DNA from: Candidatus Micrarchaeota archaeon | GTDB lineage: Archaea; Micrarchaeota; Micrarchaeia; Anstonellales; Bilamarchaeaceae | DNA length: 64,000 bases | Assembly: GCA_040753215.1 (NCBI GenBank) | Contig: JBFMEZ010000025.1 | Coordinates: 5,528 to 69,527 of the forward strand | Direction of reading: 5' to 3' | Translations under genes and position numbers: made by a program | Notes under the pieces: generated by a model | Seen by the model: the letters and a program-made list of their open reading frames with translations, nothing else | Databases searched by the model: none | Told to the model about the DNA's origin: nothing | Shown here: one piece after another, positions 21 through 54,034 of the stretch | How the letters are laid out: every line of letters begins with the position of its first letter | How positions within the stretch are numbered: position 1 is the first letter of the stretch

Positions 21-100
21 GCCCCATCTCCTGTTTCCGGTTTCCTGTTTCGGGTTTCCAGCACCGTTACCGGCAACGGGGAACTGGAAACTGAAAACTG
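21..100. repeat. inverted heptamer-repeat arrays (CTGTTTC/CGGTTTC ... GGAACTG/GAAACTG) downstream of gap; potential hairpin/terminator
   Basis: TGTTTCCGGTTTCCTGTTTCGGGTTTCC then, inverted, GGGGAACTGGAAACTGAAAACTGG. Confidence 0.7.
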
Positions 101-156
101 GTATTTCCGTCAGGGATGATGGCGATATGGTTCGGCTTCTTGTTTTCCATATTCCA

Positions 157-1155
157 TTACCACTTCTTCATGTGCAATACGAAATCTATGAGCCTGTTCG
201 AGTAGCCCCACTCGTTGTCGTACCACGCAAACACCTTGGCGAAATTCCCGGTTGCGCTCGTGAGCTGGGAATCCACTATCGAGGAGTGCGGGTTCCCGAT
301 TATGTCGCATGAGACTATGGGGTCCTCGGTATACTGCAGTATCCCCTTCATCTTCCCTTCCGCGGCCGCCTTTAGCGCCGCGTTCACCTGCTCCCTTGTT
401 GATTCCCGCTCCAGCTCAACGGACAGATCAACTAGGGAGCCGTCGGGAACCGGGACGCGGAGGGCGATGCCGTCCATCCTCCCCTTCATCTGGGGAATCA
501 CTTCCCCGATTGCTTTCGCGGCGCCGGTCGTGGTGGGGATTATGGAGACGGCGGCTGCCCGCGCGCGCCTCCAGTCCTTGTGGCTTCCGTCCACTATGTT
601 CTGGTCGTTGGTGTATGCGTGGACCGTGGTCATGTAGCCGCGCCTCACCCCGAAGGAATCCACGAGCACCTTAAGGACCGGCGCAAGGCAGTTGGTGGTG
701 CAGGATGCGAGCGAGAACACCTTCGCATTCCTGTCCGCATGCTCCATGTTCACCCCTGGAACTACGGAGGGGCAGCCCTTTGCGGGAGCGGAGATGAGGA
801 CGCGCTTCGCGCCCGCCTCCAGATGCTTTGACGCCTCGGAAGCGTCCTTGAATATGCCTGTGGACTCAATCACCACGTCCACGCCGTGCGCCTTCCACGC
901 GATTCCTGAGGGCTCGGTCTCCTTTGCCCACGGGATTTCGTATCCGTCTATTACGATGGATTTGTCCGTTGCCTTCACCGTGCCTTCGAAAGGCCCCATC
1001 ACCGAATCGTACTTGAAGAGGTGCGCGTTCACGAACTGGTCGCTGCGGTTGTTTATCAGCGAAAGCTCAATCTCCTTCCCGACAAGCCCGCGCCCGAACG
1101 CGGCGCGGACGAACATCCTGCCTATCCTTCCGAATCCTGAAACTCCTACCCTCAT
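157..1155 (-). CDS. gap: glyceraldehyde-3-phosphate dehydrogenase, class I (bacterial/eukaryotic type)
   Basis: N-terminal GFGRIGR Rossmann motif and the SCTTNCLAP catalytic-Cys signature. The ASCTTN/TVHA(Y)T/WYDNEWGYS blocks are class I GAPDH. I take MRVGVSGFGRIGR as the start; the ORF track begins three codons earlier. Confidence 0.9.
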   Translation of the reverse strand: MRVGVSGFGRIGRMFVRAAFGRGLVGKEIELSLINNRSDQFVNAHLFKYDSVMGPFEGTVKATDKSIVIDGYEIPWAKETEPSGIAWKAHGVDVVIESTGIFKDASEASKHLEAGAKRVLISAPAKGCPSVVPGVNMEHADRNAKVFSLASCTTNCLAPVLKVLVDSFGVRRGYMTTVHAYTNDQNIVDGSHKDWRRARAAAVSIIPTTTGAAKAIGEVIPQMKGRMDGIALRVPVPDGSLVDLSVELERESTREQVNAALKAAAEGKMKGILQYTEDPIVSCDIIGNPHSSIVDSQLTSATGNFAKVFAWYDNEWGYSNRLIDFVLHMKKW

Positions 1156-1213
1156 CAAAAGCACCCCAGAACAGATTATTCTATATTAAGAGGAAAATTT
1201 TATAAGCAGATAA

Positions 1214-6077: not shown

Positions 6078-6098
6078 TTATAAATTTTCCCCCCCCCC
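6078..6098 (+). promoter_or_regulatory. TATA box (TTATAAAT) followed by a C8 homopolymer, 24-31 nt upstream of the ATG at 6109
   Basis: Archaeal TATA-like octamer at the right distance for a leaderless transcript. An eight-C tract lies between the TATA box and the start codon. Confidence 0.45.
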
Positions 6099-6108
6099 GA
6101 ATTGCAGC

Positions 6109-6438
6109 ATGGCGCACCTGACTGGGCTGGAAGGAATTCTGCATCTCACGCTGTTTGCAATAGCAATCGCCACGCCGCTGATTTTGTTCTACATAGTTTC
6201 AAGGATGAGAAAGCATGTTTTCCGGGACATCATCATGATTTATGCGTTCGCCTTCCTCTTTTCCGCATTCAGGTGGGCGGGAGGCTCGATGACCGCAATG
6301 GGATATGAATTTACAGGCACGCTGCTCTTCCAGTGGGCGTGGTTCCTCACCGGGCTGCTCGCGGCAGTGCTGGGCATTGCTGCAACCATCAAGATGTACT
6401 ACTGGCTGAAGGAAAACGCTTTTGAGGCGGTGAAATAG
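6109..6438 (+). CDS. small membrane protein (3 predicted TM helices), hypothetical
   Basis: Hydrophobic 109-aa ORF starting at MAHLTGLEG. The upstream part of the tracked ORF precedes the TATA box and is unlikely to be coding. Confidence 0.5.
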   Translation: MAHLTGLEGILHLTLFAIAIATPLILFYIVSRMRKHVFRDIIMIYAFAFLFSAFRWAGGSMTAMGYEFTGTLLFQWAWFLTGLLAAVLGIAATIKMYYWLKENAFEAVK

Positions 6439-6516
6439 CAGGCCAAAAGCACCACGGAACCTGATTTTGCAGACGTAGCAACTGGAAACCCGAAACTGGG
6501 AACGAAATCAATGATT

Positions 6517-6588
6517 TGGGCCCGAAGGGAATCGAACCCCTGGTCTCTACCATGTCAGGGTAGCGTCTTGCCATTCGACTACGGGCCC
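6517..6588 (-). tRNA. tRNA-Val (anticodon GAC)
   Basis: Reverse complement reads GGGCCCGTAGTCGAATGGCAAGACGCTACC-CTGACAT-GGTAGAGACCAGGGGTTCGATTCCCTTCGGGCCC-A. It has a 7-bp acceptor stem, the GG D-loop, anticodon loop CUGACAU with U33 and A37, and a GGTTCGATTCC T-loop. CCA is not encoded. Confidence 0.9.
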
Positions 6589-6799
6589 AGAACAATTGCC
6601 GGTTTAGAGTTTTCAGTTTCCGGATAACGTGTTGACAAATAAAGGCGCATAAGTCCTTAAAAAGGATAGCACACCCCCGTGCGTGCGTAAGGAGTGCGAG
6701 CGAAGAGTTGCGAAGCGAAGTGGAAAGGGGGTATGATTACCCTAAAGAGAGGGGGGAACGCCTTCCCCCTTCCTCTTGGTGCCATTCGACTACGGGCCC
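6569..6799. repeat. 20-bp direct repeat (TGCCATTCGACTACGGGCCC) at 6569-6588 and 6780-6799, which is nt 1-20 of tRNA-Val; the copies bound a 192-bp segment
   Basis: Exact 20/20 identity. The second copy lies just outside the tRNA, 192 bp from the gene's 5' end. This is the pattern of an att-site duplication or a mini-element insertion. Confidence 0.7.
6727..6784 (+). repeat. conserved ~58-nt element, copy 1 (hairpin GGGGGAACGCCTTCCCCC plus CTAAAGAGA TATA-like box), ending in TGCCA
   Basis: About 85% identical to 33219-33274. Both copies sit in divergent intergenic regions directly beside tRNA sequence. Confidence 0.6.
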
Positions 6800-6830: not shown

Positions 6831-7628
6831 ATGATTATAAAGAATCGTTCTGAAAGGAAGCGCATGAAAAAATCATCGCGCGTTCCCGCATCGGCAAGGC
6901 GGGCAGAACCGAAACCGGAAACCGGAAGCTGGAAACTGGAAGCCGGCGGCCGCACGCCCACCGGGATATCCGGGCTGGATGATTTGCTTGAGGGAGGGTT
7001 CCCGGAAGGGAGCTTCGTCCTTCTCTCGGGAACGTGCGGCACGGGCAAGTCCATCTTCGGGATGCAGTTCGTTTGCCGGGGCGCGGAGAGGGGCGAGCCG
7101 GGAGTGTTCCTCTCCATGGAGGAGGAGCCGGAGAGGATCATTAAGGACATGTCCGGCTTCGACTGGGATATAAGGAAGCAGGTGGACGAGGGGCGGCTGG
7201 CGATAGCCAAGCCGGAGATTTACGAGAGCGACGCGATAAAGAGGATGATAGTGGATTCCGTGGAAAGGACCGGCGCGAGGAGGCTGGTGATAGACTCCTT
7301 CACGCTGCTCAGCTCCTACCTGGAGAATCCCTTCGACATAAGGAAGATGATTTTCGACATAAGCAGGGAGATAAAGAAGCTGAACTGCACCACCCTCTCC
7401 ATCTCGGACATGCCGGAGGGCGGCGCATCCTACTCCATAAACGGGTTCGAGGAGTTCGTCTCCGACGGCGTGGTCGTGCTGTCCCTTGCGCAGGCGGGCA
7501 CGACCGGGGCGTACACGCGCGCGCTGCTCGTGAGGAAGATGAGGGCGACGTCGCATTCGCTGAAGATGGTTCCGTTCAAGATTGAGAGGGAGGGAATAAA
7601 GCTCTACCCCGAGGCGGAGCTTTTCTGA
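6831..7628 (+). CDS. KaiC-like / RadA-RecA superfamily ATPase, second paralogue
   Basis: GISGLDDLLEGGFPEGS...SGTCGTGKS Walker A and an LVIDSFT Walker-B-like block. The N-terminal ~40 aa contain a heptamer-repeat stretch (KPETGSWKLEAGG), so the true start may lie downstream or use a non-ATG codon. Confidence 0.75.
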   Translation: MIIKNRSERKRMKKSSRVPASARRAEPKPETGSWKLEAGGRTPTGISGLDDLLEGGFPEGSFVLLSGTCGTGKSIFGMQFVCRGAERGEPGVFLSMEEEPERIIKDMSGFDWDIRKQVDEGRLAIAKPEIYESDAIKRMIVDSVERTGARRLVIDSFTLLSSYLENPFDIRKMIFDISREIKKLNCTTLSISDMPEGGASYSINGFEEFVSDGVVVLSLAQAGTTGAYTRALLVRKMRATSHSLKMVPFKIEREGIKLYPEAELF

Positions 7629-7634
7629 CGGCGG

Positions 7635-8048
7635 TCAGCCGGCCGGCCTTGGCTGTGCGTGCAGCATCCGGAGAATCTCCTCCCGGGATATCTCCTGCCT
7701 GTGCCTCTGCTCCGCCTGGAGCTTCCTGAAAAAGTAGAAATACTCGTAAAGGCTGCCCTCGTCCTCCGCCCATATAACCCTATGGCTGTCCATCACCTCC
7801 CATTTGAGATAGAGGGGGAGCTCTTCGAAGCAGTAAACGTCGTAGCCCTTTCCGTATACATCCACATTGTGGTATACTCTTTTCATAATGCCCGCGCTTT
7901 TCTTCCCTGGAGCGACTATGCAGATGTCTACATCCCTCGCTCCGGCTTCGCCCTTTGCTGCGGAGCCGAAGAGGAGGACCGCAAGCGCGTCCTTTTTCAG
8001 GAATGAGAACTCTTTCCTGAGCGCCCGCATCATTTTTTCCCCAGCCAT
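7635..8048 (-). CDS. minimal nucleotidyltransferase (MNT/MntA-type antitoxin of a HEPN-MNT pair)
   Basis: LFGSAAKGEAGARDVDI is the GS-x9-13-DxD Pol-beta nucleotidyltransferase motif. The protein is small (137 aa) and overlaps the HEPN gene by 19 nt. Confidence 0.75.
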   Translation of the reverse strand: MAGEKMMRALRKEFSFLKKDALAVLLFGSAAKGEAGARDVDICIVAPGKKSAGIMKRVYHNVDVYGKGYDVYCFEELPLYLKWEVMDSHRVIWAEDEGSLYEYFYFFRKLQAEQRHRQEISREEILRMLHAQPRPAG

Positions 8049-8443
8049 TCCCCCACCGCCTGCGCGAGCTCTTCGAAGAACGGCAGCAGCCCGAGCATTG
8101 ATTCGTATGCCGTGTTCTCATCAAGCCCGTTGTATTCGTGGACGACCCTGTTCCTGAGGCCGTTCGCCTCCTTGAGCGCCTTCCCCAGCCTTCCGCTTAT
8201 GACTTTCTTCCCGAGTGCGGAGTCTATGTTTGAGTAGTCGTCCTTCGGGGGCGTGTTCTCATCGCGGAGAACCATCGCAAGGATGTCCATCGCCGCCTCG
8301 ACCATCTCCTGAAAAGCCTTGTAGCAGGCGAGGGCGGTTTTTTCATCCCCGAGGAAGTCGCCCTCCCATTCCTCTATCTCCGCCTTCCTTTTCCGCAGCA
8401 GGTCAAGCTTGTCCTTGTACCTCTTCAGCCTGGCGGCCTCCAT
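8030..8443 (-). CDS. HEPN-domain protein (DUF86/HepT-like toxin)
   Basis: The R-x4-H motif RNRVVHEY near the C-terminus and a small all-alpha protein, immediately upstream of and overlapping the MNT gene. Confidence 0.75.
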   Translation of the reverse strand: MEAARLKRYKDKLDLLRKRKAEIEEWEGDFLGDEKTALACYKAFQEMVEAAMDILAMVLRDENTPPKDDYSNIDSALGKKVISGRLGKALKEANGLRNRVVHEYNGLDENTAYESMLGLLPFFEELAQAVGEWLGKK

Positions 8444-8494: not shown

Positions 8495-9067
8495 GTGGAC
8501 ATCGGAAAAGCGTTCGAGGGCCTTCACGAAGGCTTCGTGGTTCTGGTTATGGCGTCTCCCGACGAGTACGGGAAGGCAATCATTGATATCGTAAAGTATT
8601 TCGCGAACAGGAGGGGGCTCCCGCTCATATATGTAACGGCGAACAAGCCGTATGCGGTGCTCAGGAAGGAGCTGGAGAGGGGCAGCGCAAAGACAGATAA
8701 GATGTTCTTCATAGACATGATAACGAAGAAGGCGGCTGGGGCATCCGTGCGCGAGAAGGACTGCCTTTACATAGCGTCCCCGGACTCGCTGACCGAGCTG
8801 ACGATTGCGCTGAACAGCGCGGTTGCCGCATTGCCGCAGAAGGGGAAGGTCATATTGCTGGACAGCGTTTCCACGCTCCTGATGTACAACAACGCGGGCG
8901 CGGTCGGCAAATTCGTGCATTTCTTCACCGCGAAGATGGCGTCGTGGGATGCAGAAGGGGTGCTCGTGAGCCTGGAAGACGGGACAGATCCGATGCTTGT
9001 TTCGCAGCTAAGCCAGTTCTGCAGCAGGACCGTGCACATAAAGGGAGGGAAAGTAAAATGGGTATGA
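8495..9067 (+). CDS. RecA/KaiC-like fold protein with degenerate P-loop (hypothetical)
   Basis: VLVMASPDEYGKAI sits in the Walker A position, and KVILLDSVSTLLMYN is a Walker-B-like strand. The protein resembles an inactivated KaiC/RadB domain. GTG start. Confidence 0.4.
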   Translation: MDIGKAFEGLHEGFVVLVMASPDEYGKAIIDIVKYFANRRGLPLIYVTANKPYAVLRKELERGSAKTDKMFFIDMITKKAAGASVREKDCLYIASPDSLTELTIALNSAVAALPQKGKVILLDSVSTLLMYNNAGAVGKFVHFFTAKMASWDAEGVLVSLEDGTDPMLVSQLSQFCSRTVHIKGGKVKWV

Positions 9068-9103
9068 TTACAAACCGAAAACTGGGAACCGGGGAACTGG
9101 TGT

Positions 9104-9751
9104 GTGGGTATGATGTGGATTGATTTGATTTTGGGCGCTGCCACCCTTCTGCTGGGTGCGGCAGGCCTGGTGTACGTGTACTACGCCATACAGAGGCTGG
9201 AAAAAGGCGAGCTTAAAGGGATGCTGGAATGGGTTTTCTATGCGTATTTCTTCGCTCTCATGCATCTTGCCGTGCTTCTCTGGAATGACTTTTTCCCGGG
9301 GGGCCTGGAACTCCCTGCATACCTATTATTCCTGGCAGCGGTTCTGTGTGCGCTCCAGTCCGGGAGGCTCATAATGCGGTTCTCCAGGGCATACGGGTTT
9401 GCAGGGGTGGAGCTTGGGAAGGACCCCTGGTATGCGCTTATGGAATCAGTGGTGCGCTCCGTATACGGGCTTGAAGGCGCTGAAGCAATCGTGCATGCGA
9501 ATTCCGTGAAGGGGCTGAAGGTTGATGAGGAGATGAGGGTTGTTGAAATCAGAGGGAACAGGAAGAAGGCGCTGGAGGAGCTTGTGAAGAAGTACGAGGA
9601 AGTATACGGGAAGGCTGCCCTCAACATGATGAGAAAGGGAGCGGAGGCGGTTCTGCGGGAAAATGAGTGGCTTAGGGCGGATGTGGCGGGCATTTTTGGG
9701 GCGGGCGCTGGACGGGAGGAAAAGTTCTCCAAAGCTTTTGAGGTGGGATGA
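9104..9751 (+). CDS. membrane protein (4 TM N-terminal) with cytoplasmic C-terminal domain, hypothetical
   Basis: Hydrophobic N-terminal half and a charged C-terminal half, with coding-like codon usage. Confidence 0.5.
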   Translation: MGMMWIDLILGAATLLLGAAGLVYVYYAIQRLEKGELKGMLEWVFYAYFFALMHLAVLLWNDFFPGGLELPAYLLFLAAVLCALQSGRLIMRFSRAYGFAGVELGKDPWYALMESVVRSVYGLEGAEAIVHANSVKGLKVDEEMRVVEIRGNRKKALEELVKKYEEVYGKAALNMMRKGAEAVLRENEWLRADVAGIFGAGAGREEKFSKAFEVG

Positions 9752-12478: not shown

Positions 12479-13015
12479 TTACTGCACAACCCCGTTAAGC
12501 GTGCCCGCCTCTATATATGAGAAGCCGGTTACACGGTCCGTGTAATTTATCCTCATTACGACCTGGAAGGACGTGCCTGCGCCGGTCGTGTAGTTGAACG
12601 CGCCCACCGGGATGGTGTCGGATATCTCGCCCACGCCGAGCGAGATGTTGAGGTCTCCGGAGTCTATCATGTCGCCCGCGTATGTAGCGTTTATGGAATT
12701 CACGGAGATTGGTACTCCCACCTGGTTCTGGAGCTTCACCGAAAGGTCGCCGCCCGAATTAAGGATGAAGGCGGGGACCGCGACCTGCGTGAAAGCGACC
12801 GGCCTGTTGCCGATGAAGGAGCCGATGTCGAATATTCCCAGCACGAAAAGGGCAGCGGCTACAAGAAGAACAATGAGGAGCGCCCATCCGTATGTAATGA
12901 GGAAATCCAGGGCGGCTTGGCCCCTTCGGTTTCGGGTTTCCTGTTTTCCGTTTCCCGCTTCCGGAAACCGGGGGCCGGCAACTGGAAACCGGCTTGCAGC
13001 CTGGCCTTTTTTCAT
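12479..13015 (-). CDS. archaeal type IV pilin-like protein (class III signal peptide, DUF361-type), paralogue 1
   Basis: MKKGQAAS...RRG|QAALDFLITYGWALLIVLLVAAALFVLGIF is a prepilin-peptidase site (K/R-G|Q-x-x-x-D/E) followed by a hydrophobic helix. The leader carries an in-frame heptamer-repeat insertion (RFPVAGPRFPEAGNGKQETRN). The ATG at 13015 is preferred over the tracked 13171. Confidence 0.7.
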   Translation of the reverse strand: MKKGQAASRFPVAGPRFPEAGNGKQETRNRRGQAALDFLITYGWALLIVLLVAAALFVLGIFDIGSFIGNRPVAFTQVAVPAFILNSGGDLSVKLQNQVGVPISVNSINATYAGDMIDSGDLNISLGVGEISDTIPVGAFNYTTGAGTSFQVVMRINYTDRVTGFSYIEAGTLNGVVQ

Positions 13016-13234: not shown

Positions 13235-13723
13235 TCAGCTCACCTCCCCGAAAACCGTTCCCTTCGAAGCATAAGCAAACCCGGTTGCGCGGTCTTCGTA
13301 CCCTATCTTTATCGCGATTGCATAGCGCATGTCCGGGCTGATGCCGGTGAGGTTTCCCACCGGGATTATGTTCGATACTTCGCCAATGCCCAGCCGTGTA
13401 TTTGTGCACCAGGCGGTTATGGTCTGGTTCTGGTACGTTGCATTTATGTAGTTTATCCTTATCGGCCTTCCCGCATCGTTCCTGAGCTTCAGGAGAAGCA
13501 GGCCAGAGGGCGAAACCCTGAAAGCCGGGACTGAGACCTCGCTAAACCCTGCCGCCCTGTTGCCTATGAACGAGCCGACGTCAAGTATGCCCAGGGAAAA
13601 GAGGGATGCGCCTATGAGGATGAGCAGCACAACCGCCCATCCGTAGGTCATCAGGAAATCAAGCGCCTGGCCTTTATGGTTTCCTGTTTCCGGTCTTCGG
13701 TTTCCGGAATGCATTACGGACAT
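13235..13723 (-). CDS. archaeal type IV pilin-like protein, paralogue 2
   Basis: MSVMHSGNRRPETGNHKG|QALDFLMTYGWAVVLLILIGASLF is a class III signal. Leader codons are made of GGAAACC-type repeats. The mature domain is similar to paralogues 1 and 3 (IGNRxxGF, SVPAF, INATY). Confidence 0.7.
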   Translation of the reverse strand: MSVMHSGNRRPETGNHKGQALDFLMTYGWAVVLLILIGASLFSLGILDVGSFIGNRAAGFSEVSVPAFRVSPSGLLLLKLRNDAGRPIRINYINATYQNQTITAWCTNTRLGIGEVSNIIPVGNLTGISPDMRYAIAIKIGYEDRATGFAYASKGTVFGEVS

Positions 13724-13765: not shown

Positions 13766-14272
13766 CTATTCCACGATTCCGTTCAGCGTCCCGGTCTCCA
13801 CGTAAGTGAAGCTCGTTGTGCGGTCGGTGTAGCCAACCCTCATAGTAACCACGTAGGAGTCGCCGCTGCTCAGCCCGGTGAACGCGCCCACGTTTATGGT
13901 GCTGGAGGTCCGCCCGATGCCAAGGTTCGTGGAAGGCGCGACGCTCACCGTCTGGTTGGTGTAGGTCGCGTTTATGGAATCTATCCTTATCGGGTTCCCG
14001 ACCTGGTTCTGGAGCTGCAGCGTTAGCGTCCCGTTTGACGCGATTTTGAACGCCGGGACCGCCACCTGCGTGAAACCCACTGCCCTGTTCCCTACGAAGG
14101 AGCCGATGTCGAATATCCCGAGCACGAAGAGTGCCGCTGCAATCAGGACAATCAGCAGTATGGCCCATCCGTAGGTCATCAGGAAATCCAAAGCCGCCTG
14201 GCCCTTCCTGTTTCCTGTTTCGGGTTTCCGGTTCCCGGAAACCTCTCTCTCTTGGCTTTTTCCCGAATACAT
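13766..14272 (-). CDS. archaeal type IV pilin-like protein, paralogue 3
   Basis: MYSGKSQEREVSGNRKPETGNRKG|QAALDFLMTYGWAILLIVLIAAALFVLGIF. Same family as the two downstream genes. N-x-S/T sequons are present. Confidence 0.7.
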   Translation of the reverse strand: MYSGKSQEREVSGNRKPETGNRKGQAALDFLMTYGWAILLIVLIAAALFVLGIFDIGSFVGNRAVGFTQVAVPAFKIASNGTLTLQLQNQVGNPIRIDSINATYTNQTVSVAPSTNLGIGRTSSTINVGAFTGLSSGDSYVVTMRVGYTDRTTSFTYVETGTLNGIVE

Positions 14273-14354
14273 ACTGGTATCACCTTGGGGTGAATAGGTT
14301 AAAAAGTTTATAAAGCTTGCTCCAGAAGCCCTGTTCGGTGGGGTATTGAAGGTC

Positions 14355-14490
14355 TTGGGGTCTTGAATGGTCTACGGGTCCCGGGGGTCTTGAATGGTCT
14401 ACGGGTCCCGGGGGTCTTGAATGGTCTACGGGTCCCGGGGGTCTTGAATGGTCTACGGGTCCCGGGGGTCTTGAATGGTCTACGGGAGCT
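14355..14490. repeat. tandem repeat, 27-bp unit (TCTTGAATGGTCTACGGGTCCCGGGGG) x5
   Basis: Five head-to-tail copies at 14361, 14388, 14415, 14442 and 14469 with no spacers, so not CRISPR-like. Located in the divergent region between the pilin paralogues and the adhesin gene. Confidence 0.85.
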
Positions 14491-14531
14491 GAAGACTATG
14501 CAAGACACGGAGACTACCGGTTGGTGATGAG

Positions 14532-14909: not shown

Positions 14910-14962
14910 GAAGAAAAATGCAGAAACAAGACGTGAAGGCACCCAAGACCAGAAGACCACCG

Positions 14963-15150
14963 CAAGACCTGGAGACCACGGTTGTGCGGTCTCGGAGTCC
15001 TGGAGTCTCGAGAGTCTTGAGAAACGTGGGGACTACGCAAGACCCCCAAGACCTGGAGACCACGGTTGTGCGGTCTCGGAGTCCTGGAGTCTCGAGAGTC
15101 TTGAGAAACGTGGGGACTACGCAAGACCCCCAAGACCTGGAGACAGCCTC
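14963..15150. repeat. tandem repeat, 84-bp unit x2.2, directly upstream of and in frame with the adhesin start
   Basis: Copies at 14963-15046, 15047-15130 and a partial 15131-15150. Translates as PQDLETTVVRSRSPGVSRVLRNVGTTQD. Shares GCAAGAC/GGTCT motifs with the 27-bp array and with the 5' end of the pilin gene at 18230. Confidence 0.85.
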
Positions 15151-27645: not shown

Positions 27646-27760
27646 CAGAAATAATAGGTGGGAATTGTTTATATGGATTTGGGAAGGATGAAAATATAGA
27701 AGAAAAGCAAAAAAGAAAAATTAGGACGAAACTGGAAACCCAAAACGGGAAACTGGAAAC

Positions 27761-42534: not shown

Positions 42535-42620
42535 GATGCTATTTATAAACATCCAAAACCACTACGGAAAAAAGGGCTGGAAACAGAAAACCGGAAACCT
42601 GGCGGAGGAAGGTTTATTAG

Positions 42621-44292: not shown

Positions 44293-45609
44293 TTACTTCC
44301 TGCTTTTCGCAACCACAAGCAGAAAAGTTGAGACGAGCACCGCGGCGACGGGGCAGGCCGCGGAGCCCGGGGAACCTGAAACCGGGGGCTGGGAACGGGA
44401 GACCGTTATGCTGTCGCTTATCTCGGTGCCCTGGGTGCTTACGAGGTACGGGACGGAGTAGGTGCCGCTGCCCAGCGAATCAAGGTTGAGCGCGTATGAA
44501 AGGGCCTTCCTGCCGCCGGGGGGAAGGAAAAGGATTCCGGACTCCTCGCCGTGCACGTAGGGCGGGAACGTGATTATGTAGGTGGGCGTGAGGTAATTCG
44601 CGCCCGGGTTGCTTATCACAACGCTGAATTCTGTGCCGTCAAAAGCGGCATACGCGGAGGAAACGGGCGGGAAGGGCCCGCTCTGGAGTATACGTATCCT
44701 GGCGACCGTATCGAAAGAGAAGGGGCCTCCCCTCGCAGTGAGCCGGTCGGCAGCGCCGGACTGGTCCAGGGAATAGGTGCCCGCGATGCGGCGCGCATCC
44801 AGGTTCCCCAGCTCCCGGAATGTGGGGTCCGAGGGCACCCACTGGCCGCCCATATCCAGCTCGGCCCATGCGTGCTCCTGCCAGCCGTCGCCGCTGAAGA
44901 CGTAGCCTGAAACGTAGCGCGTGCCGATGCCGAGAGAGCGGGCAAGCGAGATGAGGAGGTGCGTGTAGCCCACGCAAACGGCGCGTCGGCCGGCATATAC
45001 CTCCTCTGCCGGGGCGTCGTCCCCCCAGAAATCCTCATCGTATTCCACGTTCCTGTGCACCCAGTCGGTGAGGACCGCCGCGGCCTCCAGCTGGCCGCTG
45101 CTCTCGGCAGTATGGGAGCGGGCGAAGGCGGCCATTGCTGTGGTGTATGTTGTGAGCGTCGTGCCCGGGATGGAAGCGTTGGGGAGGGGCGGGTTGGAGG
45201 AGAGGTCCGGCATATAGCGCGTCTCAACGACCGCAACGGCAGTTATCTTTTTGGGGGTGGAGAGGTTGGCGGAGCGGTAGATTATCCTTATCTCGTCGCC
45301 GTGGCGGACCGCCTCGCCGTCGCTCAGGTTTATCTGGATTATCCTCTGGAACGGTGATTCGACAAGGAAGGTCGCATTCAGGACCGCGTCGCGGAGGGTG
45401 CCGTTTGAGACTATGTTCCATTCCTTTTCGAACTCGGCTGCCATGTAGCCGGTGTATGTGGAAAAGGAGATTGGGAGGAGAAGGAGGAAAATGAGAGCCG
45501 GAAACCGTGGGCTCAAACCGTGAAGCCAGGGACGGACGGGGGGACGGGAGGGCGGCTTCACGTCTTGACGGGAAACAGGGAACTGGAGGCTGGCTGGCAC
45601 GGGTTTCAT
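44293..45609 (-). CDS. secreted/anchored transglutaminase-like (cysteine-protease-fold) protein
   Basis: RRAVCVGYTHLL (catalytic Cys), WQEHAWAELD (His) and SDPT (Asp) form the transglutaminase-like core. N-terminal signal/TM (ALIFLLLLPISF) and C-terminal TM (VAAVLVSTFLLVVA). The leader region is encoded by heptamer repeats. The start ATG overlaps the purD stop (ATGA). Confidence 0.6.
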   Translation of the reverse strand: MKPVPASLQFPVSRQDVKPPSRPPVRPWLHGLSPRFPALIFLLLLPISFSTYTGYMAAEFEKEWNIVSNGTLRDAVLNATFLVESPFQRIIQINLSDGEAVRHGDEIRIIYRSANLSTPKKITAVAVVETRYMPDLSSNPPLPNASIPGTTLTTYTTAMAAFARSHTAESSGQLEAAAVLTDWVHRNVEYDEDFWGDDAPAEEVYAGRRAVCVGYTHLLISLARSLGIGTRYVSGYVFSGDGWQEHAWAELDMGGQWVPSDPTFRELGNLDARRIAGTYSLDQSGAADRLTARGGPFSFDTVARIRILQSGPFPPVSSAYAAFDGTEFSVVISNPGANYLTPTYIITFPPYVHGEESGILFLPPGGRKALSYALNLDSLGSGTYSVPYLVSTQGTEISDSITVSRSQPPVSGSPGSAACPVAAVLVSTFLLVVAKSRK

Positions 45610-46901
45610 CTCTTCAGCCTGCGCATGTGCTCCACCCTCTTCCTCACGAGCAGCTGGGTGCCTATGTCGGGCCTGTGCCACAGCGGGCCGTGCACCGCGC
45701 GCGTGCAGCATTCCGCCTTCTCCTCGGCGCGCTCCAGCAGCGGGTCCTGCGCGGCGACCGCCACCGCGCGGGAGGAGGTTGTGAGTATCCTGCCATCCTT
45801 CTCATAAACCGAGCCGAGGTATGCCTTGCCGCCGCAGTCCCACACCGCCCTGTTGTCAACCTCCACGGCAGCATCCTTCTTCCCGTTCTCTGGATAGCCC
45901 TCCGGGACCAGGTATTTCACGACGGTGCAATTGGGCAGGAAGGAAGCGCCGGTGAGGCTGCCCTCCACTATGGACTGGAGCACGTCCGCGAGCTGCGTGC
46001 GCAGCACGAGCAGGGCGTTCAGCGCCTCGGGGTCGCCGAAGCGCGCGTTGTATTCTATCAGCTTCACGCCGCTGCCGGTTATCATGAAGCCGCCGTAGAG
46101 GACGCCGCGGAAGGTGTTCCCCTCTGCGCGCATCGCGTCTATGGTCTGCTGCATTATGGATTTCGCCTCCTCCAGGTCCCTGAGCTCCATGAAAGGGAGA
46201 AGGCGGCCGGTGGAGTAGGAGCCCATCCCGCCTGTGTTGGGGCCCATGTCGTTGGTGAACGCGCGCTTGTGGTCCTGGACCGGCGGCATCACGGAAAGGC
46301 GCTCGCCGTCGGAGAATGCCTGGAGGCTGAACTCCTCGCCGTCCAGCTTCTGCTCAAGCAGCGCCTGCTTGTCCTTCCGGAGGAGCTCCCTCACGTAGTC
46401 CAGGGCTTCCTCCGCAGAATTGAGGTGCTCGCCCATAACGCGCACGCCCTTGCCGCCGGTGAGGCCCACGGGCTTGACCACCACGTCGCCGAATTCGGAA
46501 ATGAAGGAGGATGCGTCCGATTCGCTCTTTGCTATGCGGAAGGCCGGGAGGCCCGGGATGCCGTGCTTCTGGAGCAGGGTGCGGGCGTATCCCTTGTCCC
46601 ATTCTATGCGCGCGGCCTCCTTCAGCGGCGAGGCGACCTTGAGGCCCGCGCCTGCGAGGATGTCCGTCACGCCCTTGGCCAGGAGAGCGTCGGGGCTTAC
46701 GAAGCCGAGTTCTATCCCCTTCTCTATGCACCATGCGCCGACGGTCTCCCTGTCCGCCGGGTCGCAGACGAGGACCTCGCCGGCGAGCCTGGCGATTCCG
46801 GGGTGCTTCTTCTCCATTATCGCGTAGAGCGACGAGCTCCGGGAGAGCTGCTCGGCGATTGCGTGCTCGCGCGCGCCGGAGCCTACGAGGACCACCTTCA
46901 T
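45606..46901 (-). CDS. purD: phosphoribosylamine-glycine ligase
   Basis: MKVVLVGSGAREHAIA N-domain and an ATP-grasp central domain. 431 aa. Confidence 0.9.
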   Translation of the reverse strand: MKVVLVGSGAREHAIAEQLSRSSSLYAIMEKKHPGIARLAGEVLVCDPADRETVGAWCIEKGIELGFVSPDALLAKGVTDILAGAGLKVASPLKEAARIEWDKGYARTLLQKHGIPGLPAFRIAKSESDASSFISEFGDVVVKPVGLTGGKGVRVMGEHLNSAEEALDYVRELLRKDKQALLEQKLDGEEFSLQAFSDGERLSVMPPVQDHKRAFTNDMGPNTGGMGSYSTGRLLPFMELRDLEEAKSIMQQTIDAMRAEGNTFRGVLYGGFMITGSGVKLIEYNARFGDPEALNALLVLRTQLADVLQSIVEGSLTGASFLPNCTVVKYLVPEGYPENGKKDAAVEVDNRAVWDCGGKAYLGSVYEKDGRILTTSSRAVAVAAQDPLLERAEEKAECCTRAVHGPLWHRPDIGTQLLVRKRVEHMRRLKR

Positions 46902-47193
46902 TGCTTACCACCCGGAACCGGAAACTGGATGGCGGAAACCAGCAGGTTTCTGCCATGGCGGAATCCCGAAGGATTCTGCCAGTCTTCTCCGCAGAGAAGC
47001 GGAGTCATCGCCGCAGCGATGCGGAAACTGGAAACCGTCATGGCTTACCACCAACTATCCTTGAGAAGGTCTGGGAGAGTATGGAGAGCATGTCCATCCT
47101 GTACTGGCGGGCTATCATGTAGGAGCGTGGGCGGGAGAGCTTCCTTATTATGTCGAACCTGAAGACGCCGGGCTTTGTTTCCCTTGCCATGGT

Positions 47194-47891: not shown

Positions 47892-50800
47892 CTACTCCTC
47901 CCTCAAAGAAAGGTCAACCATGCCCTTGGAAGCCTTCCGCCTGCGGGCCAGGGAGAATATCTCCACTATGTCCTTCTCGCCCACCTCGAGCTGGCGGAGG
48001 AACCCCATTACGGAAGAGGGCGAGTAGCCGAACTTCTCAAGTATGGACACGAATTCCGTGGCGTCCATCACCCCGTCATTCCTCTCGAACTCGTTCTTCA
48101 CAAGCCCTATCTGCTCGTCGGTAAGGCCGAGCTCGTAGAGCATGTTGCAGAACTGCTCCCTTTCCTTTTCGACAGACATTCCATCAGCCTCCAGCGCATA
48201 CACGAACAGCGGCTCCTCCCCGTCTATCTTGTTAAGAAGGAAGGTGTGCGAGCCGCCTGCCCGCTTCGCGAATATCATGTTGAGGGCCGCGTCGCCCACG
48301 CCGAATTTGGAGATTTCGCCGTCTATGTAATCCGAGTAGTTCAGCGACTGCCGGACGTAGTCCTTGAACTCGCGCAGGACCAGCCGCAGTATGAACATCG
48401 TGCCGACGTTGCTCAGGATCGTCTTGTGCATGTCGGTAGGGTTCTGGGAGGCGACGATGAGGGCGAAGTTGTATTTCCTGCCCTCGCGCACTATCGTAAT
48501 CACGTCGCTGCGCTCGTCGGAGGCGATCTTCCACGCCTCGTCCACCACCACGAAGAGGCGGACGCCCTTCTCCTCCTTCATCTGCTCCCTGCGCATCCTC
48601 TCCTTGAGGAACTGGAGGATCGTGAGGCCCGCGAGGGAGCGCATCTCCTCGGTGGGGAGGGAATGGAGGTCTATGCACACCAGGCCCGAGTCCGTGAGCT
48701 TCTCCAGGGCCAGCGTGGAGGGCTTCGCGAAGAAGTCGCTGCCCTGAGTGGTGAAGCGCTTCAGCAGGCGCGCGGCGCCCCTCTTCTTTTTCTCCTCAAG
48801 CCTTTTCACGACGTCGGTGAGCGTGGGGTTCTTCGCACCGTCGTATGTTTCCTCGAGCGCCTCCTCTATGTCGTAGCGCTCGGAGGGGAAGTTGTGCAGG
48901 TCCAGCAGGATTTCGAGCGCGGACATTATCTGCTTCATCCGCTCGGATGGCGTGAGGCCAGCGAGGTCGAGGAGGTTGAGGTGCTCCTCGCCCAGGTGGA
49001 TGACCTTGCCGCCCGCCTGCTTCACCCACTTGTCGTACTCGCCGACCCAGTCCAGGATGAGCGCGTTGGAATTCCAGACGAGCGAGGCGCGGGTTAGGAA
49101 TGTTTTGGTTAAGTACGAGTTGTGGACAAACAACCCGCCAAAGCCGGCCATGAAAACCTCGCTGTCAACGGAAAGATCGTAAACGAACTCATCCCCAGAA
49201 GGCTCTTCCGCCTTTTCCACTATGGGGTCCCAGAAGAGGTCGGATTGTGCGAGCAGGTTGAGGAATTCCACTTCCTTGTCCCCGGTTGCCTGCACCGAAA
49301 CCTGCTCCAGAAGGCTTGCAAGATATTTTTTGGTTGGCCTCCTCAAGCCGGTTTGTATGGAGTAAGTCATCTGTGTGCGCGGGAGAGAATATTTCTTCAT
49401 CACGGAAGCAACGACGCCTTCTATGTTCGGAATCACATCAACGTTGCTGTGGCCCTTCCCGCATCTCTGGAGCAGCAGAACGAGGTTGTGGTTTTTCCTT
49501 TGAGTTACGAAGCCGATGTTTTCCGTGTATTTTCTGATGTTCTCCTTGCCGGATACCGTAACACGGTAGTATAACCCTCCCTTATGCTTAGAGTTGGTTG
49601 CCCTCTTCTTGCTTGGGTGGACTCTAGCGATTATGCCGAACCTCAGGAGCATGTAGCACAGCTGGCTGGCGAGCTCTTTTGACTTGGTGGTAGCGCTTAT
49701 GCACTTCTGCTCAACGCCGCCATCACCCTCAAAGTAACCCTTTAGGAATTCTGCGAGGTATTCCAGCTTGGAGGCCATAATGGGCGCGGGTATTTTCTTG
49801 CTGCCGGCATTGCCCTCAAGGCCGATTCTTTTTAGTAGCCGGACTACCGCGCTCGCTGAAGTGCGAAGCCCATGAGGTATTGGGAAGAACTGGAAGCCGA
49901 CAATCCCAAAGCAGCTTTTCATGTCGTCAAGAAGTTCCGGCTCGGTCGTGTGCACGTTTATGAAATGCTTTGCAATTGTGCCTTCTGAAACTATGTAGCC
50001 GCACAGCCTTGCGAGTGCCATCGCCTTTTCATTTTCTATCTTCGGGAGCAGAAGGGCGGAGCCGCTGGGCGACCTGAGTTTCAGTCCGGGAATAATGCGT
50101 GCGTCCAGACCGAGGAGTTCCATGATCTGGCTGAAATACGCGAGTGGGATTGCCCTTCCGGCTTTGTAGAAGCGGAGGTACTTGTCATATTTTTTGTTTA
50201 TCGGGAGCCACTTGTGCAACCTTTCGCAGTTGTCCGCGATAACTCCGGCTGCGCCTACCACATGGACATCGTCGTGTTTAAGCAGCCCAAGGGTGTCTAC
50301 GGCGAACTCTTCGCCTTCGAATGACAGCTCTCGCGGGGTGGGAATGTAATCACCCGTGCGCACCTCCGAGCCCTTGGCCACCGAGATACCGCCATCGCGC
50401 AGGACGAGGATGTTGTGGTCACCTGTCGTCCTTATCTCCCTGCCACTTGCGGTTTTGAATGAGTACAGTGTGCTCGGGGACTTTTTCCGCCCGGCGAAAT
50501 TAACGGGCACCCATTTCGCCTTTAGATTGCCATCAAATGAGTATATCTCGATGCCGGGGCTGCTGACGCCCTCCACATCGTCAATCGTTTCTGCAGAACC
50601 GGAATTTTGGATGAGCCCGTCTATAAGTTCTCCGATTTTTGCGATGCGGACCTTTCCGTTTTGCCTTATTATCACCGGCTCGTTTCTATCAATCGACTTT
50701 CCGCTCCCCGTGATGCCGACGATGGCGATGTGCGGGTTGATGAGCTTCTGGTAGTTCCAGAAGACCGGAACGTTCAGCCAGCGGGTTTTTCCCACATATA

Positions 50801-50906
50801 TCCCGTCTCCGGAGGATGAGATGAGGTATTCGGGCCTGGGCTCCGGCGGGTGCACCAGGAAAAGGCGCTCTGCAAGCTGCGGGGTGTAGATTTTCTGCAC
50901 TTTCAT
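47892..50906 (-). CDS. HerA/FtsK/VirB4-superfamily ATPase (DUF87-like) interrupted by a large intein
   Basis: Walker A AIVGITGSGK|S is interrupted after GK. Walker B is LFVVVDEAW and the sensor is ALIVASQNPTD. The inserted segment carries two LAGLIDADG motifs (LARLCGYIVSEGT, LKGYFEGDG) and ends ...GGLFVHN|S (intein blocks F and G with +1 Ser). Confidence 0.8.
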   Translation of the reverse strand: MKVQKIYTPQLAERLFLVHPPEPRPEYLISSSGDGIYVGKTRWLNVPVFWNYQKLINPHIAIVGITGSGKSIDRNEPVIIRQNGKVRIAKIGELIDGLIQNSGSAETIDDVEGVSSPGIEIYSFDGNLKAKWVPVNFAGRKKSPSTLYSFKTASGREIRTTGDHNILVLRDGGISVAKGSEVRTGDYIPTPRELSFEGEEFAVDTLGLLKHDDVHVVGAAGVIADNCERLHKWLPINKKYDKYLRFYKAGRAIPLAYFSQIMELLGLDARIIPGLKLRSPSGSALLLPKIENEKAMALARLCGYIVSEGTIAKHFINVHTTEPELLDDMKSCFGIVGFQFFPIPHGLRTSASAVVRLLKRIGLEGNAGSKKIPAPIMASKLEYLAEFLKGYFEGDGGVEQKCISATTKSKELASQLCYMLLRFGIIARVHPSKKRATNSKHKGGLYYRVTVSGKENIRKYTENIGFVTQRKNHNLVLLLQRCGKGHSNVDVIPNIEGVVASVMKKYSLPRTQMTYSIQTGLRRPTKKYLASLLEQVSVQATGDKEVEFLNLLAQSDLFWDPIVEKAEEPSGDEFVYDLSVDSEVFMAGFGGLFVHNSYLTKTFLTRASLVWNSNALILDWVGEYDKWVKQAGGKVIHLGEEHLNLLDLAGLTPSERMKQIMSALEILLDLHNFPSERYDIEEALEETYDGAKNPTLTDVVKRLEEKKKRGAARLLKRFTTQGSDFFAKPSTLALEKLTDSGLVCIDLHSLPTEEMRSLAGLTILQFLKERMRREQMKEEKGVRLFVVVDEAWKIASDERSDVITIVREGRKYNFALIVASQNPTDMHKTILSNVGTMFILRLVLREFKDYVRQSLNYSDYIDGEISKFGVGDAALNMIFAKRAGGSHTFLLNKIDGEEPLFVYALEADGMSVEKEREQFCNMLYELGLTDEQIGLVKNEFERNDGVMDATEFVSILEKFGYSPSSVMGFLRQLEVGEKDIVEIFSLARRRKASKGMVDLSLREE
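49119..50696 (-). mobile_element. intein with LAGLIDADG homing-endonuclease domain (about 526 aa) inside the ATPase P-loop
   Basis: Boundaries inferred from extein continuity: GITGSGK-[S71...N596]-SYLTKTF restores a Walker A plus helix. Terminal HN with +1 Ser. The first residue Ser is unusual but known. Confidence 0.7.
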
Positions 50907-52629: not shown

Positions 52630-52875
52630 TCAGGTCAGGAGGTTCGACGCCACCGTCTGTATCAGCTCTGCGGCGCCTATTATCGCGGCGATAAGGACGC
52701 CGCCTATGAAAAGCCCTATCGCGGTGTTCTGCCACCTTCCCCTTGTCTCCCCGGGCTGGAGCTGTGCAAGCCCGTAGGCGACGCCCCCGACTATTATCAG
52801 GAGCAGCGAGAGGGTGACGCCGGCGGACTTCATGACTTCCAGCCAGCTCGAGAGGAGCGTCTCTATATACGCCAT
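52630..52875 (-). CDS. small two-TM membrane protein (81 aa), VirB2/TrbC-pilin- or CedA1-like
   Basis: Two hydrophobic helices separated by a short polar loop. First gene of the co-directional cluster. Confidence 0.45.
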   Translation of the reverse strand: MAYIETLLSSWLEVMKSAGVTLSLLLIIVGGVAYGLAQLQPGETRGRWQNTAIGLFIGGVLIAAIIGAAELIQTVASNLLT

Positions 52876-52936
52876 GGCCTTCTAATCGTAAGGAAGCTAT
52901 ATAAAGCTTTTTCGGGGGCTTTAATTCGGGGAAAAC

Positions 52937-53686
52937 GTGAAAGTGGGCATTGGGCTTGGAAAGAGCATACATGAGAATGCAGCGCGCTACTACGAAGAGG
53001 CGAAGAGGGCGAGGGAGAAGGCGGAGGGCGTGCGGAAGGCCATGGAGCAGACGCGGAAGAGGATGAAAGAGGCGGCCGGGAGAAAGAAGGCGGCCGTGAA
53101 GGTCGCCCGGAGGAGGGAGTGGTTCGAGGAATTCCACTGGAGCTTCACGAATGAGGGAAAGCTTATTCTGGCGGGGAAGAATGCGCAGCAGAACGACAAA
53201 TTATTCGGGAAAATGGAGGAGGGGGACTTGTTTTTCCATGCGGACATACGCGGAGCCGCGGCGACTATTCTGAAGGGAGGGGTTGGCGCGGGCGGGGAAG
53301 AGAAGAAAACGGCCGCCACCATCGCCGCATCCTACTCGAAAGCGTGGGGAATGAGGATGGCGGCGGTTGATGTGTATGCGGTGAGGAGGGGGCAGCTTTC
53401 CAAGCATGTGAGCGGAGGGTTTGTTGGGGCTGGAGGGTTCGCGATTTCCGGGGAGAGGGAGTGGTTCGGGAATACAAAGCTGGTGCTCGCAGTCGGGGTG
53501 GAGGGGAACGGGCGGGTTTCGGCCGGGGCCGGGGATGCGGAGTGGATGAAGAAGAAAGTGCTCATTGTGCCGGGGAAGATGGAGAAGAAAGAGGCGGCGG
53601 GGAGGATTGGGGAATTGCTCGGGGTGCCGGGGAGCGAAGTGATGCCTGTCCTGCCTCCGGGCAGGATAAGTATTGCGCGGGGTTAG
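52937..53686 (+). CDS. NFACT-R (DUF814) domain protein, Rqc2/FbpA-family C-terminal-domain homologue
   Basis: WFEEFHWSFTNEGKLILAGKNAQQNDKLF...DLFFHADIRGAAATILK matches the DUF814/NFACT-R signature. Gly-rich C-terminal part. Confidence 0.55.
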   Translation: MKVGIGLGKSIHENAARYYEEAKRAREKAEGVRKAMEQTRKRMKEAAGRKKAAVKVARRREWFEEFHWSFTNEGKLILAGKNAQQNDKLFGKMEEGDLFFHADIRGAAATILKGGVGAGGEEKKTAATIAASYSKAWGMRMAAVDVYAVRRGQLSKHVSGGFVGAGGFAISGEREWFGNTKLVLAVGVEGNGRVSAGAGDAEWMKKKVLIVPGKMEKKEAAGRIGELLGVPGSEVMPVLPPGRISIARG

Positions 53687-54034
53687 GAAGGGAATGTGAA
53701 CCTCCACGGCTCGGTCACACCTTGTAGTCGCCTGCGTGGCGGCGATAGGTCTGCCTAGCCATTGGGTGCGGCTACAAGGTGTGAGGAAGCCTCGGCATTT
53801 ATGCCGGGGAGGAGAGCCGAGGCTTCCTCTAAAGGCAGCAGGAATACAGTTGCCCCTTCATCTATGAAGAAGCCACGGCCTTTGGACCGTGGAGGTTCAG
53901 TAACCATGGTTACATGCCAGTTTTCAGCTACCTGTTTTCAGTTTTCAGTAACGGATGCCGGAAACAGGAAACCGACAACGGGAAACCGCAGGAAGAAAAC
54001 AAGAGTTATATATCTTGCTCAATAAAAATGCGCC

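Follow-up and report, generated by a model that had tools for sequence, protein, structure and literature searches.

A dispersed family of GGAAACN heptad repeats in a Micrarchaeota genome: the case for insertion into permissive sites

Introduction

Tandem arrays of a seven-nucleotide (7-nt) unit recur throughout a 64-kb stretch of the genome of a Candidatus Micrarchaeota archaeon (contig JBFMEZ010000025.1, positions 5,528 to 69,527; hereafter the window), a small, symbiotic-type archaeon of the DPANN group. In this report, we describe these arrays as one family built of the core GGAAAC followed by any base (GGAAAC+N), and on balance we lean towards regarding it as insertion-derived, largely non-adaptive and filtered by selection to permissive sites. 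We observe insertion polarity against syntenic relatives, target duplication at two sites, restriction to permissive sites, turnover of whole units, one disruptive insertion and a free seventh base. In kind, the family belongs to the dispersed heptameric simple-sequence repeats, like the short tandemly repeated repetitive (STRR), TAACTGA and GGGNATC sequences, but without the slippage feature of identical neighbouring units.

Among the long simple repeats of prokaryotes, heptanucleotides are the most frequent class, with polymerase slippage as a suggested origin (Mrazek et al. 2007, as summarised in PMC4679880); despite this abundance, the origin and role of heptamer repeats are unsolved. TAACTGA repeats sit upstream of start codons in Beggiatoaceae, where a regulatory network has been proposed (MacGregor 2015, PMC4679880), and the repeats of the GGGNATC type in Xanthomonas and Nostoc lie between genes, favour four units, form inverted repeats, vary between related species and have no known function (Rehm et al. 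2015, PMC4692102). The literature that we searched held no report of heptanucleotide repeats in Micrarchaeota.

Results

The unit is a six-base core with a free seventh base

We called units as a GGAAAC core with at most one mismatch per 6 nt, the seventh base being free, and found 18 strict arrays of at least three units in the window, against a mean of 0.05 and a maximum of 1 in 100 third-order Markov simulations; arrays of at least two units numbered 40, with 6.7 expected. A relaxed chain detector returned 24 arrays of three (n=7), four (n=13) or five units (n=4) and none longer, and Tandem Repeats Finder (TRF) reported 15 period-7 arrays of the GGAAAC+N family, together with a lone unrelated 7-nt repeat of 2.3 copies at 32499-32514; the G+C content of the window is 58.6%. 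The recurrent dispersed heptad family claimed in the initial annotation of the window is borne out by these counts, which lie far above the Markov expectation for the window, and all the sites that it listed hold array sequence, those at 44370-44410 and 45520-45600 being weak (two-unit and mismatched). Its range of 3-8 units per array has to be shortened to 3-5, since eight is reached only when both arms of an inverted pair are summed. The arrays are not assembly artefacts, because orthologous arrays recur in independent assemblies, from other samples, of the relatives L125/L267, L175 and L182 (L-numbers denote syntenic loci of relatives).

The unit, first read as GGAAACY, is GGAAAC+N, with all four bases at position 7 (C 36, T 28, G 15 and A 15). 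In the phased arrays detected by TRF, which treats the seven positions equally, position 7 carries 0.04 bit and each of the six core positions 1.1-1.9 bit. Adjacent seventh bases are the same in 20 of 70 cases, where a fraction of 0.286 is expected, so that neighbours are no more alike than chance, and strings of seventh bases common to different arrays show no excess over chance either. The units run head to tail in tandems that are longer and more frequent than chance; near-identical units within an array, the mark of slippage, were not found, the seventh base being random and a single clear adjacent-unit duplication being present. A six-base core with a free seventh base speaks against simple slippage and for a specific activity that generates or recognises the unit.

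Seven sites are inverted pairs, all ordered (GTTTCCN)n and then (NGGAAAC)n. Whatever the base at N, the arrays contain no stop codon in any of the six frames; the earlier observation that they stay open within genes is correct in this respect, yet the property is not special, because 25% of possible hexamer+N cores have it too. The encoded peptides are as first described, GNRKPET in one sense and VS/PVSGS-type in the other. A CRISPR (clustered regularly interspaced short palindromic repeats) array was rejected as an identity for the element, because its units are 7 nt long and contiguous without spacers, whereas CRISPR repeats measure 23-50 nt and alternate with unique spacers. An Rfam scan of the window gave no match over any array and returned two tRNAs only, and a scan of viral contigs for the repeat gave 13 scattered matches.

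Arrays are present or absent at the same site in related genomes

The comparison set consisted of syntenic loci of relatives at 72-83% DNA identity. In the regions sampled, arrays occur in the window, L125/L267, L175 and L182, and are absent from L121-124, L126-133, L268 and L269. Several sites are filled in one lineage and empty in another. An abutting inverted pair at 19601-19649 fills the 53-nt spacer between a stop codon at 19599 and the CBS-TrmB start at 19653; the window and L125 share this pair of about 50 nt as orthologs, and L121 has an overlapping ATGA at the same junction. The purD junction is an uninterrupted overlap in L126 and L268 and carries a 121-nt insert in the window, and the inverted pair at 53919-53987, which lies between a structured RNA-like region and, further downstream, the purL TATA box, is absent from L268. 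Among pilin-like genes, the leader of gene 3 holds a four-unit array in the window (14209-14236, minus strand; leader MYSGKSQEREVSGNRKPETGNRKGQAALDFL) and is 19 amino acids (aa) longer, by array-encoded residues, than in L125, where the site is empty and the leader is short (MYARKGQAALDFL, with MYARKGQ). The polarity is reversed at a large pilin-like gene, which is filled in L125 and has a short MKGQ leader in the window.

Unit number also varies at one and the same locus. The leader of pilin-like gene 5 has five units in the window (17695-17729, plus strand), two in L125 and none in L121, and the window and L125 differ here by exactly 21 nt, in frame. Directly after the stop codon of the thermosome gene (minus strand), an array at 27727-27761 (plus strand; GTTTCC-type in the sense of the gene and followed by a T-rich tract) has five units in the window and four in L175 and L182, the extra GGAAACT duplicating the adjacent unit. 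From such comparisons of filled and empty sites and of unit number at syntenic loci, we conclude that arrays were gained, lost and resized after speciation. As a separate observation on the thermosome locus, L121-L124 carry an extra AT-rich gene of 200-230 aa between the thermosome gene and pyrD (9120-10000 in L121), an interval that in the window (27646-27760), L175 and L182 holds the array and T-rich spacer only.

Changes of unit number within coding sequence recall contingency loci, in which slipped-strand changes would switch the pilin-like surface proteins on and off by phase variation. At least six pilin-like genes do have arrays at the 5' ends of their coding sequences, a 7-nt unit does alter the frame and unit number does vary among relatives. 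Slippage is disfavoured, however, because the seventh base is heterogeneous and adjacent units match no more often than chance predicts; moreover, the single measurable coding difference is the in-frame 21 nt, no frameshifted gene was found among the pilin-like genes compared in the window and its relatives, and many arrays adjoin housekeeping genes (thermosome, purD, purL, PCNA and tRNA). Neither a tract of identical units nor a frame-shifting change of length was seen, and we regard phase variation as very improbable.

One insertion is disruptive. An array had been noted at 21-100 as lying downstream of the gap gene; its position is right, but it lies inside an uppS-like (cis-prenyltransferase) open reading frame (ORF) at 1-150 (minus strand, start at 150), which follows gap directly and runs past the window edge. 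The inverted pair at 29-99, consisting of (GTTTCCN)4, a 12-nt spacer and (NGGAAAC)4, splits the DGNRRW motif between Asn16 and Arg17 as an insertion of 70 nt (the length of 10 units and not divisible by three) and adds an in-frame TAA; the L175 ortholog is intact (230 aa; PF01255, Prenyltransf, E=1.3e-71). The insert is bracketed by GGAAAT and GGAAAC, its excision restores DGN-RRW exactly, and the native target, GGGAAC-A-GG, is already unit-like. As judged from the sequence, the insertion is harmful and the gene is disrupted; on a more remote reading, the hairpin would be removed or bypassed in the RNA or during translation, and the gene would then not be dead. A bulge-helix-bulge intron was also considered for this hairpin and is not supported, as the predicted stem has 1x1 mismatches and not 3-nt bulges.

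Target duplications flank two inserts

We scanned for direct repeats abutting each of about 32 clusters, using a score that reaches 10 or more at 0.4% of control positions, and two clusters stood far above this null. At a gene junction (9059-9114), a 36-nt array insert (9069-9104, plus strand) is flanked by an exact 10-nt direct duplication (TGGGTATGAT, at 9059-9068 and 9105-9114); this junction is filled in L267 too, with a different architecture. At the purD junction (46894-47052), the composite insert (46913-47033), with end heptads CGGAACCGGAAACTGGA and CGGAAACTGGAAACC, is flanked by a 19-nt direct duplication with two mismatches (46894-46912 and 47034-47052), which spans the overlap between the purD start and the stop of a 51-aa gene. 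Both duplicated targets contain an ATGA-type stop/start overlap, and at both sites the left copy provides the stop of the upstream gene and the right copy the start of the downstream gene (TGA and ATG, respectively, at 9059-9114). Overlapping junctions tolerate insertion because the left copy restores the upstream stop and the right copy the downstream start. Two pilin leaders contain diverged duplications of about 12 nt (GQAA...GQAA and KSQ...KGQ) that are suggestive, and around 280 bacterial heptamer clusters we found no excess of direct duplications. Between its heptad ends, the purD-upstream insert holds four small hairpins, which comprise (46929-47024) two tandem hairpins of 26 nt and two of 22 nt; compensatory changes distinguish the copies (GGAAACC/GGTTTCT versus GGAATCC/GGATTCT, and CTTCTC/GAGAAG versus CATCGC/GCGATG).

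Flanking duplications invite comparison with miniature inverted-repeat transposable elements (MITEs) and with repetitive extragenic palindromic (REP) sequences or bacterial interspersed mosaic elements (BIMEs), which a transposase would mobilise in trans, with the heptad arms as terminal inverted repeats. The inverted arms are about 28 nt long, direct duplications occur at two sites, and the pairs at 32-99 and 19601-19649 are near-identical (one arm matches at 26 of 27 nt and the other shares GGCAACGGGGAACTG), although this is the only pair of sites that resembles true copies. Defined terminal inverted repeats and a uniform length are missing, however, as single arms, pairs and direct-ended composites of 20-121 nt all occur; the duplications are of 10 and 19 nt where clear and about 12 nt where suggestive, with none at most sites; arrays have unit order and N strings in common no more than chance predicts; no transposase was found among the window ORFs and no RAYT-like protein (REP-associated tyrosine transposase) in the window; and 17 of the 24 arrays lie inside ORFs, where strictly extragenic palindromes such as REPs are not found. 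Trans-mobilised miniature elements appear to us improbable on this evidence. The narrower notion that the arrays are copies of one composite master element was rejected, as shuffles of unit order and of N strings gave no excess sharing.

Arrays lie in spacers, leaders and linkers

Placement was counted on a hand-curated gene map of the window with the 24 relaxed arrays. Intergenic DNA, 4.4% of the window, holds seven of them, the first 40 codons of genes (11% of the window) hold eight, and the disordered N-terminal half of a giant ORF holds nine, which leaves none for the remaining ~72%. In the window and in relatives, the unit is dispersed and favours non-coding DNA close to the ends of genes.

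The leaders of five pilin-like genes are array-encoded, for example as MYSGKSQEREVSGNRKPETGNRK followed by GQAALDFL in one sense and MVFSSQLPVFGSRK followed by AQASIEF in the other. In gene 1 (12479-13015, minus strand), an inverted pair at 12928-12990 gives the leader MKKGQAA-SRFPVAGPRFPEAGNGKQETRNRR-GQAALDFL, with GQAA codons flanking the insert on both sides; gene 2 has a four-unit array at 13678-13705 (minus strand; leader MSVMHSGNRRPETGNHKGQALDFL) with an ortholog at 1840-1874 of L125; and the first codons of gene 4 (MVFSSQLPVFGSRKAQASIEF) hold an inverted pair at 17221-17262 that is orthologous to 4574-4608 of L125 and differs from it in unit content. In a further pilin-like gene (18748-19599), the leader contains a two-unit remnant (18781-18793, plus strand) where L125 has four units (6088-6115). 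These genes belong to a pilus-type locus with T2SSE, two T2SSF and six or seven small proteins in which K/R-G-Q-A-(A)-L-D-F-L precedes a hydrophobic helix. The initial annotation took the leaders for class III signal peptides, which is plausible from the motif, the hydrophobic helix and the adjoining T2SSE and T2SSF genes; a significant Pfam match is lacking, the sole match being Class_IIIsignal in one protein at E=0.13.

Other coding arrays follow the same pattern. A five-unit array (6910-6944, plus strand) is translated as part of an N-terminal extension in a KaiC-like ATPase, whose true start codon is the ATG at 6864, after a TATA box (TTATAAAG) at 6835. The 2758-aa HEAT-repeat ORF (34224-42500, minus strand) carries nine in-frame arrays in both orientations between 38518 and 41971 (38518-45, 38789-816, 38998-39018, 39024-51, 39159-79, 39259-86, 40359-86, 40387-414 and 41951-71), located in poorly conserved linkers rich in P, A, S and E; several match gaps in the L126 and L269 orthologs, but most cannot be mapped to exact indels, because the orthologs are only about 29-30% identical. 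These orthologs measure 2675 and 2752 aa, and the flanking genes have about 80% DNA identity, which marks a very fast-evolving protein. The weak sites are degenerate arrays in the C-terminal region of a transglutaminase-like ORF (44370-44403, plus strand) and a two-unit array in its N-terminal tail (45571-45583, plus strand).

Outside coding sequence, arrays also stand between adjacent operon genes, after the thermosome stop and on both sides of a tRNA gene. A three-unit array (42579-42599, plus strand) lies between the divergent giant ORF and the PCNA gene, just upstream of the PCNA TATA region, and L126 has degenerate sequence in the same register there (AAAAACA GCTGCGC GGCAACC). The array reported at 6481-6510 was confirmed (three units, 6484-6504, plus strand), with the addition that it adjoins a tRNA gene detected by Rfam (6517-6588, minus strand): it lies 13 nt downstream of the tRNA 3' end and reads as GTTTCC-type in the tRNA sense, and a two-unit array (6609-6621, minus strand) lies 21 nt upstream of the 5' end, so that heptad arrays flank the gene on both sides and could pair across the tRNA. 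L175 has a five-unit array straight after a tRNA-like 3' end.

This distribution bears on the possibility that the arrays are cis-acting sites for a sequence-specific factor, which would bind RNA or DNA through a 6-base motif at 7-base spacing and serve a lineage-specific regulatory network. A conserved 6-nt core with a free seventh base is what recognition by a protein at fixed spacing predicts; the arrays cluster near starts and stops; by hand tabulation, the sense strand tends to read GGAAAC beside start codons and GTTTCC just past stops or RNA 3' ends; three lineages share a conserved array 3' of the thermosome gene; and the TAACTGA network (PMC4679880) offers an analogy. On the other hand, every context is used, from 5' leaders and 3' untranslated regions to sites upstream of the PCNA and purL TATA regions, deep inside ORFs and, once, in a disrupted gene; close relatives with the same genes and synteny do without arrays; the cores of the two leader arrays that can be compared diverge at about the genomic rate; the target duplications indicate a mutational origin; and no candidate binding protein was identified. 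We consider a binding factor a tentative alternative and, overall, unlikely.

Folding potential and decay of the arrays

As RNA, the uppS pair (29-99) folds at -30.9 kcal/mol on the plus strand (z -3.5) and -25.7 kcal/mol on the minus strand (z -2.7), and the CBS-junction pair at -25.5 kcal/mol in the sense orientation (z -3.3) and -17.8 in the antisense; the corresponding values for the L125 ortholog of the latter are -20.9 (z -3.6) and -8.6. One alternative is that the arrays are structure-forming elements, either hairpins that act as stabilisers, processing sites or terminators, or two-tetrad G-quadruplexes formed from four GG tracts, a structure also proposed for the GGGNATC heptamers of Xanthomonas and Nostoc. 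Two or three pairs beat their shuffles at z of about -3.3 to -3.6, the CBS sense hairpin is kept in L125 despite sequence change, and all seven pairs have the same arm order. Three of the six folded window pairs are no better than shuffles, however, their arms mismatch at nearly every seventh position, and single arrays lie inside ORFs in both orientations. As for quadruplexes, the modal unit number is four, but the tracts are only GG, and G1 and G2 vary more than A4 and C6 in the loop, the reverse of what a quadruplex constraint predicts; two-tetrad quadruplexes with 5-nt loops are expected to be weak. Unit number peaks at four (13 of 24 arrays) with a maximum of five, as in the four-unit preference reported in PMC4692102. 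Structural constraint is, in our assessment, a rather doubtful explanation of the family. Hand pairing of the arms also led us to reject fold-back (snap-back) copying as the origin of the pairs, because seventh bases of the two arms are not complementary and the arms mismatch at almost every seventh position.

Between the window and L125, two leader arrays differ at 7 of 30 and 6 of 24 core positions (hand count), next to an overall DNA divergence of 20.7%, and the departures of each copy from GGAAAC roughly sum to the pairwise difference. Few as these sites are, they would fit an ancestral array with near-perfect cores and already heterogeneous seventh bases, from which the copies have decayed neutrally.

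Other features of the window

Archaeal markers in the window include PCNA, thermosome and CTP-dependent riboflavin kinase, and the nearest PCNA relatives are labelled Bilamarchaeaceae. Apart from the pilus-type locus and the giant ORF, the window encodes gap, two KaiC-like ATPases, a HepT/MNT pair, pyrD/pyrK, glnA, purD, purL and purQ. The HepT-like RNase and MNT nucleotidyltransferase (7635-8443, minus strand) form a toxin-antitoxin pair adjoining the KaiC-like genes. A second tRNA gene (33271-33414, plus strand) measures 144 nt and presumably contains an intron. A 1004-aa ATPase (47892-50906, minus strand) is of the DUF87/AAA_10 type in relatives, where its length is 478 aa; it is annotated as a LAGLIDADG homing endonuclease in the source record and is probably intein-bearing.

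The spacer before the large pilin-like gene (14339-15144) contains a perfect 27-nt repeat in 4.8 tandem copies (14357-14486), an 84-nt repeat in 2.3 copies (14953-15144) and an ORF (14532-14909); its repeats are built of GGTCTTG/CAAGACC-like motifs and make up a second, distinct short-repeat family, and the counterpart in L125 consists of about 65 nt and the heptad-encoded leader only. Between an NFACT-like gene and purL, a region of about 205 nt (53697-53900, plus strand) folds at -115.8 kcal/mol (z -8.0), has a sub-threshold Rfam match to HgcC RNA (24.5 bits, E=1e-3) and is absent from L268; it is probably an unannotated structured RNA and is followed by the palindrome GTAACCATGGTTAC and then by the purL-upstream array pair.

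Discussion

The earlier interpretation of these arrays had two parts, an element that spreads by insertion and is tolerated where peptide sequence is unconstrained, or a cis-regulatory site. Filled and empty sites, two target duplications and placement in spacers, leaders and linkers only support the first part; the second is neither supported nor contradicted, given the varied contexts of the arrays and the divergence of leader cores at the genome rate. Our data suggest a model whereby GGAAAC+N heptads would be inserted, in particular lineages, by a process of the replication or repair type, often with duplication of 10-19 nt at the target, and would afterwards gain or lose whole units and decay by point mutation. 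Selection would keep copies only where 20-120 added bases are harmless, in intergenic spacers, in pilin-like leaders and other N-terminal extensions, and in the disordered linkers of the giant surface-type protein. Arrays would be born with near-perfect cores and random seventh bases, which points to a generating process or protein with six specified bases and no preference at the seventh. Most copies would have no function of their own, and some may have side effects, by forming RNA hairpins or U-rich 3' tails or by giving signal peptides Arg-Lys codons.

As to the generating process, one speculative candidate, to which we give a low probability, is de novo synthesis at staggered breaks or stalled forks by a telomerase-like or primase/PrimPol-like enzyme that would copy a six-base template reiteratively and add one untemplated base per round. 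Synthesis of this kind would account for perfect cores and random seventh bases, for an arm length of about four units and for the variable length of the target duplications.

Several observations weigh against an insertion-derived and largely non-adaptive family. The sequence examined, the 64-kb window and about 100 kb of relatives, is a limited sample. Clear target duplications occur at only 2 of about 32 clusters, most of which show none, and transposase, integrase and reverse transcriptase domains are absent from the window ORFs. L182 is nearer to the array-free L121 and L122 than to the window, and the family is for this reason probably older than any one lineage and lost in some; accordingly, some arrays may be old and then lost rather than recent gains. 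The thermosome 3' array, with only 2 of 24 core columns variable in three lineages, is more conserved than the leader arrays, and in each of the two species with the CBS-junction pair, the sense-strand hairpin is far more stable than the antisense one. Finally, the shared arrangement of all seven pairs and a unit number that peaks at four would fit a structural or functional constraint.

If de novo synthesis by a templated enzyme is correct, the family would reveal a new mutational or mobile process in DPANN archaea, one that writes stop-free filler and thereby supplies raw material for leaders and linkers. Direct recruitment into proteins is seen in the pilin-like leaders, the ATPase N-terminal extension and the linkers of the giant protein. 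Such recruitment, a truly free seventh base beside a six-base core, and an insertion polarity that can be read against syntenic relatives, with duplications that rebuild overlapping stop/start junctions, are not described for the bacterial cases of PMC4679880 and PMC4692102. Since array-bearing and array-free sister lineages exist, a comparison of their gene content could name the enzyme.

The core is not confined to this lineage. Exact (GGAAACN)3GGAAAC occurs in at least 120 stretches of species-representative genomes, and hosts among the matches listed include Gemmatimonadales, Wenzhouxiangella, Acidobacteriota, Hydrogenophilales, Desulfonema, actinomycetes, Bacteroidota and a cyanobacterium. 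Among the same matches, many bacterial ones are inverted pairs just upstream of or next to start codons, and the seventh base is fixed within the array in 135 of 158, which are true heptamers (GGGAAAC, TGGAAAC and CGGAAAC) of up to 21 units; Desulfonema magnum is one of the hosts listed for true heptamers with the GGAAAC core. Some metagenome loci unrelated to the window carry pairs of the window type, with heterogeneous N.

Comparison with known repeat systems

The closest resemblances are to other heptameric repeats. Like the GGGNATC-type repeats and the heptanucleotide class of long simple sequence repeats (LSSR), the window family is a dispersed 7-nt unit with a non-coding bias near ORF ends, direct and inverted arrays, a preference for about four units, different lengths at the same sites in relatives and one variable position in the unit. 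It differs from those bacterial repeats in its archaeal (DPANN) host, in having no arrays above five units and in the many copies that are translated in leaders and linkers. A seventh base that is random within a single array distinguishes it from most bacterial GGAAACN arrays, and two inserts flanked by target duplications distinguish it from bacterial heptamer clusters; its strand preference relative to ORFs is opposite to that reported for G-rich repeats.

With the TAACTGA repeats and the cyanobacterial STRR heptamers, the latter reportedly described by Mazel and co-workers in 1990, it shares sets of 2-6 copies at many loci, often upstream of starts and sometimes in ORFs, a patchy distribution and the lack of a known mobilising mechanism. 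The TAACTGA repeats are nearly all direct and 'forward' with a fixed seventh base, whereas the window arrays take both orientations, commonly form pairs and also follow stop codons and RNA genes, and their insertion polarity and target duplications are visible.

Like REP/BIME and MITE sequences, the arrays are short, dispersed, often palindromic, found between operon genes, able to form RNA hairpins and in places flanked by duplications; unlike them, they have no fixed length or ends, possess an internal heptad periodicity, include coding copies and have no associated transposase in the window. The opa genes of Neisseria carry pentamer repeats in their signal-peptide codons and are slipped-strand contingency loci. 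The window family resembles them in placing units that are not a multiple of three in the leader codons of surface proteins, and departs from them in that its units are not identical, the measured coding difference is in frame and most arrays lie outside surface-protein genes.

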